64,000 nt of DNA. Source: Arenicellales bacterium (GTDB taxonomy: Bacteria > Pseudomonadota > Gammaproteobacteria > Arenicellales > JAJDZL01). Positions 14,485 to 42,932 of the stretch are shown here, one piece after another; position 1 is the first letter of the stretch, and every line of letters starts with the position of its first letter. A model generated the notes under the pieces. The model saw nothing but the letters and a program-made list of their open reading frames with translations. It did no database searches and was not told where the DNA came from. The translations under genes and the position numbers were made by a program. The DNA lies in the NCBI GenBank assembly GCA_965203865.1, contig OZ241916.1:1109209-1173208 (forward strand), written 5' to 3'.

Positions 14485-14619
14485 AATCCCGCAATTTTGC
14501 CATTTACAACACAGTAGTTGATTCAAAATATGAATTTGAAAAGAAAGTAATTACTTCAATTGCCCATAATTGAAATCAATTTAAAAATTGCCATTACAAC
14601 TGGTTCATATAAAAAGAAA

Positions 14620-14643
14620 GGGACTTATATATAATGATAACCA
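14620..14643. repeat. Left terminal inverted repeat, element 1
   Basis: GGGACTTATATATAATGATAACCA. Confidence 0.9.
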
Positions 14644-14649
14644 ATTGCC

Positions 14650-15855
14650 ATGATTAGAACTTTTACATATACTGCCAAGCTTTCCAAGGGCTGCCACAGG
14701 AACCTGGAAGAATTTCTGAGTCAGGAAACAATCTTGTGGAACTGCGCCTTGCAAGAGAGGATAGAAGCTTACAACAAGGCCGGCAGGACTATAAGTCTGT
14801 ACGACCAGCAAAAGTCCTTGACCCAGATAAGGGGAGACGATGATTGGTTTAGCAAGTTTGATGCTTTTGCGCAAAGAACCTGCTTAAGAAGACTGGACAA
14901 GGCGTTCAAGAGATTCTTTCGTCGAGTCAAGAAAGGAGAGAATCCGGGTTTTCCAAGGTTCAAGTCAAGGAGCAGGGGAGTAAAGTCTTTTGAAACCCAT
15001 CAGTTTCGTATTCACAAGGCTTTGTCTTGGCATTGTGTCCGAATAAAAGGAATAGGCAAGTTCAGGTTCAAGGGTGAACTGAAAGGGGAAGTTAAGTTTT
15101 TAAGAATCGTAAAGACTCCTGTAAGGATTAAGATTCAGTTGGTTTGCGAGCTTCCGGATATAGAAACTGTAGATACAAGAGCTCCTGTAGGCATAGATGT
15201 AGGAGTTTTGAATAGGGTTAGTCTTTCCAACAGAGTACAGATTCCTAAAAGGAATGTAGACAGAAACAAACTAAAAACTTTACAGAAGAAAGTTTCCAAG
15301 TCTGTAAAGGGTTCCAACAGCAGGAAGAAGAAGATTCTATCCTTGAACAAGGAGTGGCAGAGAGTCGGAGAGAAGAACAAAGGATACCTGCATGAACTAA
15401 CCAGTTCCTTAATCAAGGACCAGACTTCCAAGTTTTATGTAGAAGACTTAAGAATTGAGAATATGACGGCTTCTGGCGGTAGCAGTAAAGCCGGACTGAA
15501 CAGGTCAATACTTGACCAGACATGGGGAGACTTTAATTTTATGCTTGGCTACAAGGCTGAAAGCGCCGGTGGCTTTGTCAAGAAGGTCAACCCCAGGTTT
15601 ACATCCCAGGTCTGCTCCAACTGCGGGCATAAGCCTAATGAGAAGATCAAGCTAAGCGATAGGACTTATCTTTGCAAAGCTTGTGGCTACAAAGGAGACA
15701 GGGATGTAAATGCAGCAATCAATGTTCTTCGTGTCGGATTAAACGGCACTTTGGGCGGGAGGCCCGAAGCGCAGGAAGAAGGAAGGCTTAAAGCATTCAT
15801 TGGAATGCCCACTGCGCAGAACAGTATACAGTGGTCTGGTTATCATTGTATATAA
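14650..15855 (+). CDS. tnpB: RNA-guided endonuclease TnpB
   Basis: WNCALQER, GFPRFK, RuvC-I GIDVG, RuvC-II VEDL, Zn finger CSNC/CKAC, RuvC-III DRDVNAAIN. Confidence 0.95.
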   Translation: MIRTFTYTAKLSKGCHRNLEEFLSQETILWNCALQERIEAYNKAGRTISLYDQQKSLTQIRGDDDWFSKFDAFAQRTCLRRLDKAFKRFFRRVKKGENPGFPRFKSRSRGVKSFETHQFRIHKALSWHCVRIKGIGKFRFKGELKGEVKFLRIVKTPVRIKIQLVCELPDIETVDTRAPVGIDVGVLNRVSLSNRVQIPKRNVDRNKLKTLQKKVSKSVKGSNSRKKKILSLNKEWQRVGEKNKGYLHELTSSLIKDQTSKFYVEDLRIENMTASGGSSKAGLNRSILDQTWGDFNFMLGYKAESAGGFVKKVNPRFTSQVCSNCGHKPNEKIKLSDRTYLCKACGYKGDRDVNAAINVLRVGLNGTLGGRPEAQEEGRLKAFIGMPTAQNSIQWSGYHCI

Positions 15856-15880
15856 GTCCCAAAAGAAATGTACTGAACCG
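15652..15880 (+). ncRNA. Putative omegaRNA (reRNA) of tnpB copy 1; 5' end and guide length uncertain
   Basis: ~194 nt identical between otherwise diverged copies; several stems; TnpB omegaRNAs are known to overlap the tnpB 3' end. Confidence 0.55.
15837..15860. repeat. Right terminal inverted repeat, element 1
   Basis: TGGTTATCATTGTATATAAGTCCC; contains the tnpB stop codon. Confidence 0.9.
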
Positions 15881-15932
15881 ATTAGCGTGCAACCGGCCTT
15901 GTGAGTGTGCTAATTTTTCAATATTGGAAGAA

Positions 15933-16394
15933 CTATACTGCTGGTAGTATTGAAGAATAAATTAAAGTGTCCAAAACGACGAGTCCAGCTGCAACTGATA
16001 AGCCTACACCGAAAGGTGCTTCATTCATTTTTGTGTTTTTGGCAAGTCCGTAAACAAAAATTGTGAACACAGAAGCAATTATCAAGACAATCGGCAGGCA
16101 TTGCCAGCCAAACCATGCTCCTATTGCGGCTAGATACTTTGCGTCGCCAAGTCCAATTCCCGAAAATCCTCGAACATGAGCCTGAATGTCATGCAGTATG
16201 CGAACTGAAATGTAAGCAGAAGTGGCACCTGTTATTGCGGAACTTGGAGATACCAACAATGAACCGCTATTGACAACAAGGCCAAGCCAAAGCAGAGATA
16301 GAGTAAACTTGTCGGGCAATAGATTGAATCTATGGTCACTTACGGCCAAGAGTATCAAATAAATTACGAAAACTGTACAGGCAAGCGAATTCAA
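15933..16394 (-). CDS. pilU: Prepilin peptidase (A24, PilU-like, no N-terminal methylase domain)
   Basis: SDHRFNLLPD and GIGLGDAKYLAAIGAWFGW aspartate motifs, PFGVGL. Confidence 0.85.
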   Translation of the reverse strand: MNSLACTVFVIYLILLAVSDHRFNLLPDKFTLSLLWLGLVVNSGSLLVSPSSAITGATSAYISVRILHDIQAHVRGFSGIGLGDAKYLAAIGAWFGWQCLPIVLIIASVFTIFVYGLAKNTKMNEAPFGVGLSVAAGLVVLDTLIYSSILPAV

Positions 16395-38642: not shown

Positions 38643-39809
38643 CTACTTTGATTCTTCAAACAGTTCACGCCCAATTAATAGCCGGCGTATTTCACTGGTT
38701 CCGGCACCGATTTCGTAAAGCTTGGCATCTCGTAGCAATCGCCCCGTGGGAGATTCATTCATATAGCCCATGGCGCCAAGAATTTGTATAGCCTCCAAGG
38801 CACACTGCGTTGCTTTCTCAGCAGTAAACAGAATGACTCCAGCGGAATCTTTGCGAGTTGTTTCACCCCGGTCGCAGGCCTGTGCCACTGCGTATGCGTA
38901 TGCTCGCGATGCATTCAGTATAGTATACATGTCGGCAATTTTTCCCTGAATGAACTGAAATTCGCCAATTGATTGATTGAATTGCTTGCGATCGTGAATA
39001 TAGGGAACAACTACATCAAGACAGGACTGCATAATACCGATTGGTCCAGCGGAAAGCACTACTCTTTCATAATCCAGCCCGCTCATCAAAACATTCACCC
39101 CTTTGCCGATTTCGCCCAGTATATTTTCATGCGGCACAAGACAGTTTTCGAAAATGAGTTCACCGGTGTTGGAACCTCTCATGCCGAGCTTGTCAAGTTT
39201 TTGCGCAGTGGAAAAGCCTTCGAATTTACGCTCGATCAAAAATGTGCTAATCCCCCTTGGGCCGGCATCATGATCAGTTCGCGCATAAACAACCAGAACA
39301 TCAGCATCCGGTCCGTTTGTAATCCACATTTTATTCCCATTAAGAACATAGCCTTCATCTGTATGCTTGGCATCCATTTTCATGCTAACCACATCGGAGC
39401 CGGAGTTGGGTTCGGACATCGCCAGAGCACCAATATGTTCACCGCTAACCAGTTTGGGCAAATACCGTTGCTTTTGTTCTCGAGTTCCATTTCTTCGAAT
39501 TTGATTCACCGCCAGGTTTGAATGTGCACCGTACGACAATCCGACAGACGCAGAAGTGCGGCTGATCTCCTCCATAGCGACAACGTGTTCCAGGTATCCC
39601 ATGCCCGCTCCGCCGAATTCTTCTTCCACGGTTATACCGAGCAATCCAAGGTCCCCCAGTTTTGACCATAAATCCTGTGGAAATTCATTTTGCCGGTCAA
39701 TTTCGTCAGCGTATGGAGCGATTTCGCTTTCAGCAAATTCTCGGACGCTTTGTCGTAGCAGATCGGCAGTTTCACCGAGTGCAAAATTCAATGTGGGGTA
39801 GGATGTCAT
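38643..39809 (-). CDS. liuA: Isovaleryl-CoA dehydrogenase
   Basis: [41 protein letters not shown]. Confidence 0.95.
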
Positions 39810-39816
39810 TTCTATT

Positions 39817-41058
39817 GGGATTTATATATATTGATAACCAGACCACTGTATACTGTTCTGCGCAGTGGGCATTCCAATGAATGCTTTAAGCCTTCCTTCT
39901 TCCTGCGCTTCGGGCCTCCCGCCCAAAGTGCCGTTTAATCCGACACGAAGAACATTGATTGCTGCATTTACATCCCTGTCTCCTTTGTAGCCACAAGCTT
40001 TGCAAAGATAAGTCCTATCGCTTAGTTTTATCTTTGTATCCGGCTTGTTTCCACAGTTGGAGCAGACTTGGGATGTAAACCTGGGATTGACTTTAGATAC
40101 AAAGCCACCGGCACTCTCAGCCTTGTAGCTTAGTATAGAATTAAAGTCGCCCCACGTTTGGTCAAGTATTGACCTGTTTAATCCGGCTTTACTGCTACCG
40201 CCAGTAGCTGTCATATTCTCAATTCTTAAGTCTTCTACGTAAAACTTGGAAGTGTAGTTCTTGATTAAGGAACGGGTTAGTTCATGCAGGTATCCTTTGT
40301 TCTTCTCGCCGACTCTCTGCCATTCCTTGCTTAAAGCAAGAACCTTCTTCTTTCTGCCGTTAGAACCTTTTACAGCTCTTGAAACTCTTTTGTGCAAGGA
40401 CCTTAGTTTAGTCCGGTCAACTTTTCTTTTAGAAACCTGCACACCATTGGAAAGACTAACTCTATTCAAGACTCCGGCATCTATGCCTATAGGACTTCTT
40501 TCATCCTCTACTTCCACATCCGGCAGCTCGCAAACCAGCTGAATCTTAATCCTTACAGGAGTCTTTACAATTCTAAGGAGCTTGGCTTCTCCCTTCAGTT
40601 CACCCTTGAACCTGAACTTGCCAATTCCTTTTATTCGGATGCACTGCCAAGGTCCTGCCTTGTGAATACGAAAAGAGTCTGTTTCAAAAGACTTGATTCC
40701 CCTGTTCCTTGGCTTGAACCTTGGAAACCCCGGCTTCTCTCCTTTCTTTACCCTGTCAAAAAATCTTTTGAATGCCTTGTCAAGTCTTCTTAAGCAGGTT
40801 CTTTGGGACGAGCAATGAAACTTCTCAAACCAATCATCTTCTTTCCTTATAGTTGTCAAAGACTTCTGCTGGTCAAGATAAGAAATACCTATATTCTGCT
40901 TTTCGTAAGCTTCTATTCTTTCCTGCAAGGCACAGTTCCACAAGAGTGTCTCCTGATTCAGAAACTCTTCCAGGTTCCTGTGGCAGTCCCTGGAAAGCTT
41001 GGCAGTATATGTATAAGTTCTAATCATGGCAATTGGTTATCATTGTATATAATATCCC
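39817..41058 (-). mobile_element. tnpB-only element, copy 2 (1242 bp), with 24-25 bp TIRs and 8-bp TSD AATAGAAA
   Basis: TIRs GGGATTTATATATATTGATAACCA (39817-39840) and TGGTTATCATTGTATATAATATCCC (41034-41058); TTTCTATT at 39809-39816 and 41059-41066. Confidence 0.92.
39822..41027 (-). CDS. tnpB: RNA-guided endonuclease TnpB (paralogue of 14650..15855)
   Basis: GIDAG, VEDL, CSNC/CKAC, DRDVNAAIN; about 68 of 401 residues differ from copy 1 (manual count). Confidence 0.95.
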   Translation of the reverse strand: MIRTYTYTAKLSRDCHRNLEEFLNQETLLWNCALQERIEAYEKQNIGISYLDQQKSLTTIRKEDDWFEKFHCSSQRTCLRRLDKAFKRFFDRVKKGEKPGFPRFKPRNRGIKSFETDSFRIHKAGPWQCIRIKGIGKFRFKGELKGEAKLLRIVKTPVRIKIQLVCELPDVEVEDERSPIGIDAGVLNRVSLSNGVQVSKRKVDRTKLRSLHKRVSRAVKGSNGRKKKVLALSKEWQRVGEKNKGYLHELTRSLIKNYTSKFYVEDLRIENMTATGGSSKAGLNRSILDQTWGDFNSILSYKAESAGGFVSKVNPRFTSQVCSNCGNKPDTKIKLSDRTYLCKACGYKGDRDVNAAINVLRVGLNGTLGGRPEAQEEGRLKAFIGMPTAQNSIQWSGYQYI

Positions 41059-41065
41059 TTTCTAT

Positions 41066-41527
41066 TCACTTGGGCTTGAGACTAATTAGCGTTTGAAGCA
41101 CTGTTGCACAAAGTGTTGGCTGGTTGCCGGAAAATACATTCACTTCAATATTGGTAAAAAATAATGTCCTGCCCGGTTTGACGACTTTGCCTTCTGCGAT
41201 CAGGAAATCGCCCTTGGCAGGCGCAAGCAAATTAATCTTGAACTCAACGGTAAGCACGCGATAATTCTCGGGCATTAATGTCAGCCCCGCGTATCCTCCG
41301 GCAGAATCAGCAATCGTGCTTGTTGCGCCTGCATGAAAGAAGCCATCTTGTTGAGAAAGTGCTTCATTGAAGGGCAAATGGATTGTACATCGTCCGGCTT
41401 CTACCGTTTCAAGAGTCGCTCCAAGCAGTCGCATGATTCCCTGACTGTTAAAGCTCTCCCTCACAACTTCCTCAAAGTTGGAGTTGGGGGGAGAGTATCT
41501 TGAAACTGGAGTGCTGGGCATTTGCAA
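41066..41527 (-). CDS. PaaI-family hotdog thioesterase
   Basis: QQDGFFHAGATSTIADSAGGYA, VLTVEFKINLLAPA. Confidence 0.92.
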   Translation of the reverse strand: MQMPSTPVSRYSPPNSNFEEVVRESFNSQGIMRLLGATLETVEAGRCTIHLPFNEALSQQDGFFHAGATSTIADSAGGYAGLTLMPENYRVLTVEFKINLLAPAKGDFLIAEGKVVKPGRTLFFTNIEVNVFSGNQPTLCATVLQTLISLKPK

Positions 41528-41914: not shown

Positions 41915-42526
41915 TCAAAATTCATCCGATGATATAGCAATTTTTTGCACCATCCGCACCATCCAGACTGGCATGTGGCTGACATTACGGAGCAAATTGT
42001 GCTTTACATTGTGGGGGAGAATTCTTTTTAGGTGCACAATAATATTGTCATTGTTATTTAATTGATTTTCTCTCAGCCAGCGTAGAGCCTGAACAACTGG
42101 GCCGGCCGGCTGGTTCGCCCAAAACATGGTGTTGGAACTCGCATGCTGGAGAACCAATTTTTCCCCGTCAATGTGAATTACACGAGAAACACCATCTGTG
42201 AGATAGACTACTTCCTCTGGTTCTTGGTCGGACAACTGCAGACGGTAAGCCGCCTCCATACCAGATATCATTACACGGATATTATCTCGCCGAATAATGG
42301 CTCGAATTACGTGAATGCGTAGAAATGTACTGCTTGATGGCAGCGTATACATACCGCGTGCTATGCGAACGAGTTTGCGTTTTTTTACCAGTCGGGATAA
42401 TGCCTTGTCTATTGCATGTCGGCTTCCCAAATCCAGAAAATCCCGCGAGATAGAAACCCATCCGTCTCGCCCGTATGACCTCATTCGACGCATTATTTCA
42501 TTTTCAATTTTGAGACTTGTATACAT
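41915..42526 (-). CDS. DUF6088/AbiEi-like (type IV TA antitoxin-type) wHTH protein
   Basis: DFLDLGSRHAIDKALSRLVK...RIARGMY, AAYRLQLS.Q.P..VVYLTDG, VVQALRWL. Confidence 0.78.
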   Translation of the reverse strand: MYTSLKIENEIMRRMRSYGRDGWVSISRDFLDLGSRHAIDKALSRLVKKRKLVRIARGMYTLPSSSTFLRIHVIRAIIRRDNIRVMISGMEAAYRLQLSDQEPEEVVYLTDGVSRVIHIDGEKLVLQHASSNTMFWANQPAGPVVQALRWLRENQLNNNDNIIVHLKRILPHNVKHNLLRNVSHMPVWMVRMVQKIAISSDEF

Positions 42527-42932
42527 GTTTATCCAGAATAATAAGTAGGCATACTTTTCTGCGCAGTCAGCACCCCAACTGGTACTTTACTTCTTCCTTT
42601 TCCCTGCTCTTTGGGCATTTCGCGTAAAGTACCGTTCAAACCGATACGAAGAACATTGTTTGGTGCATTCAGATACCGGGCTTCCATATAACCCAAGAAC
42701 CCATATCTGTATTTGCGCTGACTTGGGTACAGCGTTTTATCCGGCTTGTGTTCGTATTTTGAACAGACTTGGGATGTAAATTCTGGAGAGACTTTCCTCG
42801 CAAAGCCACCGGTATTCCCAGCCTTGTAACTCGGCAGAGCCCAAAACTCTTCGAGATTCTTGTGTGTATCGGAAGACAAACTTCCAGTGTATGTAAAAGT
42901 TCTAATCATGGTTAAACAGATATGTAAGTCCT
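42512..42932 (-). mobile_element. Degenerate internally deleted copy 3 (421 bp) of the tnpB-TIR element
   Basis: Decayed TIRs GAGACTTGTATA (from 42512) and TATGTAAGTCCT (to 42932); near-TSD TCAATTTT (42504-42511) / TTAATTTT (42933-42940). Confidence 0.75.
42529..42909 (-). pseudogene. tnpB: tnpB remnant (in-frame deletion of ~273 codons)
   Basis: MIRTFTYT..NLEEF fused to ..YKAGNTGGF..FTSQVCS..VLRIGLNGTL; three Zn-finger Cys and the RuvC-III Asp lost. Confidence 0.85.

Follow-up and report, generated by a model that had tools for sequence, protein, structure and literature searches.

A tnpB element with IS1595-type ends and a probable omegaRNA scaffold at its right inverted repeat in an Arenicellales genome

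The homing that TnpB mediates has been elucidated in scarless elements of the IS200/IS605 and IS607 types, and an omegaRNA as such is ordinary for a TnpB protein. The omegaRNA of ISDra2, also termed right-end element RNA (reRNA), overlaps the 3' end of tnpB, consists of several stems, ends at the transposon boundary and continues into a guide provided by the flank. According to the passages of PMC10711439 on which we draw, an apical loop is base-paired with the five nucleotides next to the guide in ISDra2, an equivalent interaction in an IS607 TnpB was confirmed by a compensatory mutation pair, and it is asked why bacterial TnpBs seem tied to the IS200/IS605 and IS607 families. Associations of TnpB with DDE transposases are called rare in the cited part of a 2026 review (PMC13565253); the relevant passages of Altae-Tran et al. 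(2023, PMC10691335) describe six branches of TnpB that are associated with DDE transposases and have inverted terminal repeats, plus solo TnpBs within such ends. Here we describe a tnpB-carrying element in a 64,000-nucleotide stretch of DNA from an Arenicellales bacterium (GCA_965203865.1, contig OZ241916.1, positions 1,109,209 to 1,173,208; hereafter the window). Copy 1 of this element spans window positions 14620-15860 (1241 bp) and carries a single open reading frame (ORF) as cargo. Its last ~140 nt very probably represent the guide-RNA (omegaRNA) scaffold of TnpB, as far as folding, covariation and coding signals can tell. We consider it likely that the whole is best explained as a non-autonomous tnpB element of the IS1595 type with an omegaRNA scaffold at its 3' end, a pseudoknot, a guide taken from the flank and mobilisation in trans.

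The protein encoded by the element is homologous to the TnpB of ISDra2. Pfam assigns Cas12f1-like_TNB (4.1e-24) and OrfB_IS605 (1.2e-9) to the 401-aa ORF, and the ISDra2 TnpB structures 8bf8, 8exa and 8h1j match residues 21-364 (E 3.5e-39). Homology stops at residue 364, and the last 37 codons beyond it overlap the structured stretch described below. Residues aligned to the three RuvC motifs are present (GIDVG, VEDL and DRDVNAA), which we take to contain the catalytic D/E/D of ISDra2 TnpB. These positions are intact in 14/14 copies, all of which retain an ORF of 394-401 aa. The stop codon of copy 1 lies at 15853-55, 5 nt from the element end at 15860. The genome consists of one 3.15-Mb contig, is 98% complete and contains 14 full copies with 78-100% nucleotide identity to copy 1; a first-pass annotation of the window had spoken of two full copies, which is correct for the window but not for the genome. 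The coding region and the proposed RNA have the following parts, all on the + strand:

14650-15855, +: tnpB ORF, 401 aa, recognised by Pfam and by matches to ISDra2 TnpB structures
15721-15860, +: proposed omegaRNA scaffold of 140 nt, 5' limit inferred; 159 bits with covariance model R1, pairing, covariation and loss of codon periodicity
15723-15823, +: tentative closing helix P1, UGUUCU (15723-28) with AGAACA (15818-23), in the RNAfold minimum free energy (MFE) structure of 10/14 full copies
15731-15749, +: stem A, GUGUCG with CGGCAC; 6/6 pairs changed on both sides, 84.1% of alignment cells paired
15750-15768, +: stem B, UUUGGGC with GCCCGAA, apical loop GGGAG (15757-61); 5/7 pairs changed on both sides, 87.5% of cells paired
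15769-15817, +: stem C, GCGCAG with CUGCGC (15769-74/15812-17); 6/6 pairs changed on both sides, 89.1% of cells paired
15793-15808, +: inner hairpin GCAUUC-AUUG-GAAUGC within stem C; 5/5 pairs changed on both sides, 81.1% of cells paired
15824-15853, +: stem D, GUAUACAGUGGU with AUCAUUGUAUAU, the 3' arm inside the right terminal inverted repeat (TIR); 10/12 pairs changed on both sides
15837-15860, +: right TIR, whose last 4-5 bases, (U)UCCC, form the proposed 3' strand of a pseudoknot

The first-pass annotation had pointed out three of these structures at exactly these places, namely a GGGC-GGGAG-GCCC stem, which is contained in stem B, the GCGCAG/CTGCGC stem together with the GCATTC-ATTG-GAATGC hairpin that it encloses, and a hairpin using the TIR. 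When positions 15690-15860 are folded as + strand RNA, the free energy amounts to -56.1 kcal/mol (z -3.31; 1/200 shuffles as good), 14 kcal/mol better than that of the - strand (-42.0 kcal/mol, z -2.09). RNAfold applied to single copies yields a common architecture in 10/14 of them, comprising P1, A, B with loop GGGAG, C with its inner hairpin, a 12-bp D and a 7-nt tail; a small hairpin AGG..CUU (~15779-15789) of the MFE structure is left out of the model. The stretch is conserved in all copies, with 3-12/140 differences from copy 1 over 15721-15860 in c2-c10 and 19-24/140 in c11-c14. Nucleotide diversity at the three codon positions is 0.129/0.086/0.325 in 14650-15720 and 0.100/0.081/0.132 in 15721-15852. 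The excess at third positions has thus gone, which argues for conservation at a level other than that of the protein just where homology to the solved TnpB structures ends.

Covariation was to be sought in a larger alignment, and the stems keep their compensatory changes there, both when ends are aligned by sequence only and when a model is used. The homologous ends from relatives belong to elements whose TnpB is 43-55% identical, among them ends from metagenome-assembled genome (MAG) records labelled Arenicellales, Gammaproteobacteria, Candidatus Foliamicus and Boseongicola. In a MAFFT alignment of 27 ends that takes only sequence into account, 84.6% of the cells pair, compared to 35.1-49.1% when the partners are slid by 1-3 columns, and 24/43 pairs are changed on both sides (7-15 in the slid controls). 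The covariation score of this alignment is 0.196 against 0.050-0.088 for slid partners and is reached by 0/500 shuffles, although such controls overstate significance because the sequences from within one genome are related copies. The covariance model R1 was built from this alignment. It finds 26 matches in the genome itself and recognises 6/150 other genomes sampled in the same order; a sample of 150 other genomes across the class, at one per genus, gave no match. The model-based alignment comprises 50 ends from 7 searched genomes and 4 public MAG records and is biased towards its own structure, which makes the sequence-only figures the safer ones: 86.9% of its cells pair (36.8-49.3% slid), 38/48 pairs are changed on both sides (14-24 slid) and the covariation score is 0.326 (0.054-0.088 slid). 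Every pair is doubly changed in stems A and C, in the inner hairpin and in the inner half of D, as are 5/7 pairs in B and 4/6 in outer D. G-U pairs are frequent, occurring in 44/49 rows at the first pair of stem D and in 25/49 in stem B, and thus point to an RNA of the tnpB strand rather than to a cruciform in DNA. No Rfam family was recognised in the scaffold: the window gave no match at gathering thresholds, and within 15400-15960 the best sub-threshold match at E up to 10 had an E value of 0.18 and is unrelated.

Stem D ties the putative RNA to the transposon end. The TIR-using hairpin reads GTATACAGTGGT-CTGGTT-ATCATTGTATAT on the DNA level, and its description as weaker in copy 2 is borne out by RNAfold, which loses the hairpin in that copy. 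In the 50-end alignment, the outer helix pairs in 92.1% and the inner helix in 85.9% of the cells. The arm complementary to the TIR is present only at the right end and has no equivalent at the left end. It tracks the TIR wherever the TIR changes. In the subfamily formed by c11-13, left-end TIR, right-end TIR and internal arm are altered together. In a second tnpB family of the same genome the right-end TIR departs from the left-end TIR, which results in a perfect 12-bp stem D hairpin. A gene-less element treated below contains a different inner TIR subtype together with a matching new internal arm. The arm follows these changes, which bears out the earlier description of a scaffold built into the right TIR.

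For the loop of stem B, GGGA at 15757-60, a pseudoknot with the terminal TCCC at 15857-60 had been put forward. Both motifs are present at these positions, and at least 4 contiguous pairs are possible in 21/32 distinct loop/tail combinations, but covariation is limited; altogether a pseudoknot between GGGA(G) and the (U)UCCC of the inverted-repeat end is plausible. The loop begins with GGG in 27/32 of the combinations. Across the 50 ends the five pairs are of standard type in 93.5% of the cells, compared with 89.1% after shuffling (0/500 reach the observed value) and 27-77% with slid partners; the fifth pair occurs as G-U (20), A-U (13), U-G (3), C-G (1) and U-A (1). Relatives with longer loops have 6-7 contiguous pairs, for example GGGACUU with AAGUCCC or GGGAAUU with AGUUCCC: loop and tail are complementary over 7 positions in L036 and L122 and over 6 in L120, L129 and L142. 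In L134 GGGU faces ACCC in place of GGGA and UCCC. Decayed fragments are devoid of the pairing, and the decayed copy 3 has only 2 contiguous pairs.

One element of the genome consists of little more than the scaffold module. It measures 205 bp (L113:1442-1646, G000:C1:573155-573359), has both TIRs, contains no ORF and scores 75 bits with R1. A TTGATG-17-TACAAT site precedes the module, ending 5 nt away from it; it is one match where 1.0 is expected from shuffles. It is possible that this element is a stand-alone guide-RNA gene, and in this respect it resembles the stand-alone trans-acting omegaRNAs mentioned in passages of PMC10691335; it differs from them in being a single instance here, in having no clean target-site duplication (TSD) and in a promoter-like site that does not exceed chance. 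A second candidate (G000:C1:2159790-2159943) was dropped, as its sequence is a tnpB 3' end that lacks the remainder of the gene.

The carrier of tnpB is not of the IS200/IS605 kind, as it possesses inverted repeats of 24 bp and TSDs of 8 bp:

14612-14619, +: left TSD copy AAAAGAAA, 8 bp, identical to 15861-15868
14620-14643, +: left TIR GGGACTTATATATAATGATAACCA, matching the reverse complement of 15837-15860 at 23/24 positions

Past position 24 of the repeat the two ends diverge. Elements of IS200/IS605 have asymmetric hairpin ends and no TSD, and the features of that family or of its IS1341-type solo tnpB elements are not found here: in addition to the 23/24 TIR match, an exact 8-bp TSD is present in 12 of the 15 elements scored with an 8-nt repeat in this genome. 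Furthermore, a search for Y1_Tnp, the domain of the Y1 transposase TnpA, returned no match in the 98%-complete single-contig genome. The ISNwi1 group of IS1595 in ISfinder is characterized by GGnnatTAT ends and 8-bp repeats. As would be expected of a non-autonomous IS1595 derivative, the tnpB element has TIRs and an 8-bp TSD in common with a resident element that encodes a DDE_Tnp_IS1595 transposase. The latter element is 2948 bp long (L090:213-3160, G000:C1:2154512-2157459), shares the terminal 12 nt, is flanked by the TSD AAAAATTA and encodes a protein (307 aa from the first Met) with Zn_ribbon_IS1595 (1.1e-11) and DDE_Tnp_IS1595 (135 bits) domains. Beyond the first 12 nt the TIRs of the two elements differ, and no transposase is found inside the tnpB element. 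In genome G118, TATGTA takes the place of TATATA at both ends of the tnpB elements and at the left end of an IS1595 element (L152). IS1595-family DDE transposases (PF12762) were matched in 5/5 other genomes with the RNA motif, only motif-bearing genomes having been scored. We infer from these features that the tnpB elements are non-autonomous IS1595-type cassettes that would be mobilised in trans. The cargo enclosed by IS1595-type ends in this genome seems to be of several kinds. The transposase element also contains a 496-aa ORF with an N-terminus that by eye resembles DNA methyltransferases, and a 1466-bp cassette (L091, G000:C1:2134261-2135726) with the same termini and a 7/8 TSD has a single long ORF, whose 427-aa product is likewise methyltransferase-like by eye.

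Conservation between the copies stops at 15860. If the scaffold ends there, the guide would start with the right TSD copy, and the target-adjacent motif (TAM) would be located just 5' of the single TSD in the vacant site:

14609-14611, +: candidate TAM position, reading ATA in copy 1 with a consensus of RTG; G at -1 in 23/29 elements
15861-15880, +: candidate guide AAAAGAAATGTACTGAACCG, its first 8 nt being the right TSD copy, deduced from the scaffold end and the motif in the left flank

The two 20-nt flanks quoted in the first-pass annotation as guides for copies 1 and 2 are correct in sequence. For 29/50 homologous ends, a left end could be located 900-2200 nt upstream together with an 8-nt direct repeat that has no more than one mismatch; the other 21 are fragments, show repeats that have diverged or lack a left end that can be detected. 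Immediately 5' of the left TSD, at -1, G is found in 23/29 elements, and C at the mirror position (+9, right of the TSD) in 4/29 (Fisher 9e-7; the frequency of G in the genome is 0.229). TG occupies -2/-1 in 17/29 and the mirror CA occurs in 0/29 (Fisher 5e-7), with T at -2 in 20/29. A transposase acting on symmetric ends should produce a symmetric preference; the signal is one-sided and oriented with tnpB, as TAM-dependent retention would leave it. The one-sided G or TG fits a candidate TAM outside the TSD, with a guide that would begin at the start of the TSD or one base into it. The first base of the TSD is A in 20/29, and in 15 elements TGA occupies -2 to +1; a lineage belonging to another genus has TGA at -3 to -1 in 2/3 elements. 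TGA may thus be the TAM, in which case the guide would begin at the second base of the TSD.

A number of observations, in addition to the bias of the model-based alignment and the inflated shuffle controls noted above, weigh against the reading of a scaffold with pseudoknot, flank guide and TAM. Helix P1 pairs in 82.7% of the cells, yet its second pair is unpaired in 30/49 rows and most of its pairs are invariant, which supports it little. Three of the five pseudoknot pairs are near-invariant (44-46/47 rows), the constancy of CCC has a second explanation because CCC is the transposon terminus too, and the fourth pair is broken in 8/47 rows, e.g. in c10 and c13. A search of the + strand of copy 1 for a sigma-70-like promoter upstream of 15721 had no match, and a look-up of sequencing runs for window 15300-16000 listed no RNA run. 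Among the 14 copies, unpaired linkers such as GGAAGAAGGAAG vary no more than the stems do; concerted evolution may add to conservation, and recombination may be the source of the rest of the identical tract treated below. Copy 1 itself reads ATA before its left TSD and is one of 6 exceptions to G at -1. Lastly, G is present at -1 on one side in 2/4 tnpB-free elements of this genome that share the ends and whose TSD has no more than one mismatch. This set is too small to define the target preference of the transposase: among 11 IS1595 loci examined a TSD with at most one mismatch was seen in 2, one in this genome and one in another, and looser control searches returned mostly solo ends.

The first-pass annotation had noted a tract of identity between copies that are otherwise divergent, and recent gene conversion was one of the possibilities that it set against an RNA. 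Copies 1 and 2 differ by about 17% at the protein level, as it said (333/401 residues identical, 83%; 68 differ), and at 190/1241 aligned bases (15.3%), and there is not a single difference in the 194 bases of 15652-15845, the nearest ones being at 15651 and 15846. Assuming independent sites, the naive chance of such a run at 15.3% divergence is ~1e-14. Compared with copy 1, positions 15652-15720 show 0/69 differences in copy 2, 8-9/69 in c8-c10 and 16-25/69 in the other 9 copies, and to judge from this distribution they are a mosaic block that arose by recombination between copies; upstream of it copy 1 differs from copy 2 at 183/1002 sites and from the other copies by 16-27%. Recombination thus accounts for 15652-15720, but the structural case is independent of the tract. 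That identity and conservation stem solely from recent gene conversion among the 14 copies, and that the stems are incidental, agrees with this block and with the invariant unpaired linkers and is nevertheless highly improbable, since the same stems recur with different sequences in 6 other genomes and 4 MAG records, and since conversion leaves unexplained both the compensatory changes between subfamilies of the genome itself and the disappearance of codon periodicity. That selection acts on the last 44 residues of TnpB could be suspected because the reading frame runs through the stretch to a stop codon only 5 nt from the element end; we regard it as extremely improbable in view of a third-position diversity (0.132) close to that of the other two positions and unlike the 0.325 of the rest of the ORF, of the end of homology to solved TnpBs at residue 364 and of the gene-less element, which keeps the module without an ORF.

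The palindromes might also be signals in DNA, i.e. transposase sites or end hairpins used during transposition, rather than parts of an RNA. The 3' arm of stem D and the 3' strand of the pseudoknot do lie within the TIR, which a transposase must recognise. Stems A-C, on the other hand, are located 43-130 nt inside the element, far past the repeat of 24 bp, and the left end contains nothing equivalent to them; the many G-U pairs of the structure would be A-C mismatches on the other strand, the + strand folds better, and a hairpin-using Y1 transposase gave no match in the genome. Elements with the same termini that lack tnpB also lack the module, and R1 matches in the genome are tnpB ends, fragments and the one gene-less element, besides two weak matches (G000:C1:2157476-2157576, 33 bits; G000:C1:1539617-1539746, 26 bits). 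Purely DNA-level signals are therefore distinctly improbable. The last alternative concerns the end of the scaffold, the start of the guide and the place of the TAM. In passages of PMC10711439 a layout is proposed for those Fanzor1 and Fanzor2* elements that have TIRs and TSDs, in which RNAs extend ~15 nt past the TSD; transferred to this element, the right TSD would belong to the scaffold, the guide would start at 15869 and the left TSD would be the TAM. The prevalence of A as first TSD base (20/29) means that at least one TSD base could be read as TAM or scaffold. Beyond that base the 8-nt TSD is variable, has no conserved 3' motif and is merely A/T-rich at positions 2-8, and the conserved strand-specific signal lies outside it, at -2 and -1; a fixed-sequence TSD of the Fanzor type is not found either, as TSDs differ between copies. 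We consider this layout unlikely and retain a scaffold that would end with the TIR.

In the mechanism that we propose, a resident IS1595-family transposase would move the tnpB element in trans. The ~140 nt from 15721 to 15860 would be transcribed together with tnpB and would fold as omegaRNA scaffold in the order of stems A, B and C with its inner hairpin, possibly closed by a short helix, followed by stem D and a 7-nt tail ending in UCCC. Pairing between this tail and the loop of stem B, GGGA(G), would give the kind of pseudoknot that TnpB guide RNAs typically have. The right TSD copy and the adjoining flank, which make up the DNA just past the TIR, would serve as guide. The TIR/TSD carrier implies that a vacant site holds one TSD copy between TAM position and right flank, and in such a site TnpB would read the TAM (RTG, or TGA with the first base of the TSD counted in) immediately 5' of the single TSD. 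[quoted passage not shown] If this is true, copies would survive mainly where a TAM happens to sit in the right orientation.

With the ISDra2 and IS200/IS605 systems the element thus shares a homologous protein (see above for the E value) and a multi-stem RNA that would overlap the tnpB 3' end, stop at the transposon boundary and take the flank as guide, including a candidate pseudoknot between guide-adjacent nucleotides and an apical loop as in the cited passages of PMC10711439; it is distinguished from them by its TIRs and 8-bp TSDs, by a genome without Y1 TnpA matches and by a scaffold that matches no Rfam family. It shares with IS1595 insertion sequences the TIRs, the 8-bp TSD and the terminal 12 nt of a resident transposase element. 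As in the DDE branches described in passages of PMC10691335, TnpB is enclosed by inverted repeats, its 3' end is no more than 250 bp away from the end of the transposon and, as for the solo copies there, mobilisation would presumably occur in trans. The transposase named there for the DDE-6 branch is that of IS630, and these passages contain neither a TAM outside the TSD nor the reuse of a TIR terminus in a pseudoknot. IS1595 does not occur in the main text of that paper; its supplements may list such loci. Fanzor1 and Fanzor2* resemble the element as TnpB-family nucleases in non-autonomous cut-and-paste transposons in which the TIR contributes to the scaffold; they differ, according to the passages of PMC10711439 cited here, in being eukaryotic or viral and in a TSD proposed to act as scaffold and TAM, and Fanzor1 RNAs are without the pseudoknot for which the potential is kept here.

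A literature search by title and abstract for TnpB together with IS1595 found no paper on a TnpB carried by IS1595 ends. In searchable texts the placement of a scaffold at an IS1595-type TIR/TSD site, the participation of the TIR terminus in a pseudoknot and a candidate TAM outside the TSD are apparently undescribed for bacterial TnpB. The family shows a way of fitting a guide-RNA scaffold into a symmetric TIR end, and the position of the candidate TAM outside the TSD offers a testable prediction. Its 14 diverged intact copies, together with relatives in several marine lineages, are a natural data set on the bias that a nuclease may impose on the persistence of insertions, and a 401-aa nuclease with a ~140-nt scaffold is a compact candidate for an editing tool.

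Two further copies are located in the window:

39817-41058, - strand: copy 2 of the element, 1242 bp, with the TSD AATAGAAA at 41059-41066 and 39809-39816 and GTG before the TSD
42512-42657, - strand: copy 3, the decayed 3' fragment of a related element, 109 bits with model R1

In copy 3, stem A and the inner hairpin are retained via compensatory changes, and GAAAU now forms the loop of stem B and UCUC the terminus; the reading of its inner hairpin as GTACC..GGTGC, with two T-A to C-G changes, was confirmed by eye. The second tnpB family is represented by four 1328-bp copies (L092; G000:C1:951983-953310, 1098821-1100148 and 2205086-2206413) with similar ends, plus fragments. The interior of its stem C is longer and different. 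Its DNA is ~66% identical to that of the first family, and it is close to elements of genome G108, which belongs to the same genus. In the zinc-finger region of tnpB (window 15580-15720) two sharply different haplotypes are distributed among the 14 copies, with breakpoints near 15652, and copy 1 is a mosaic of both haplotype lineages.

The start codon of tnpB is only 30 nt inside the element; by eye no Shine-Dalgarno-like sequence precedes it, and TATAAT occurs within the left TIR. Transcription of tnpB may depend on a hybrid promoter or on one outside the element. Among DNA sequencing runs (four runs, all from one study, examined as contigs) a single 235-nt contig (X1) joins position 14555 to 15942 with 13 unrelated bases in between. 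It was rejected as a clean vacant site, because 11/181 flank bases differ (~6%) and it must hence come from another, diverged strain, and it provides no test of the TSD. This strain is without the element and without most of the intergenic region 14556-15941. Finally, near-identical targets were used in three independent insertions, namely AAAAGAAA in copy 1 and in a copy from another genome (L130) and AATAGAAA in copy 2, and in both copies of the window the target word is followed by TG; the three insertion targets hint at a target word preferred by the transposase.

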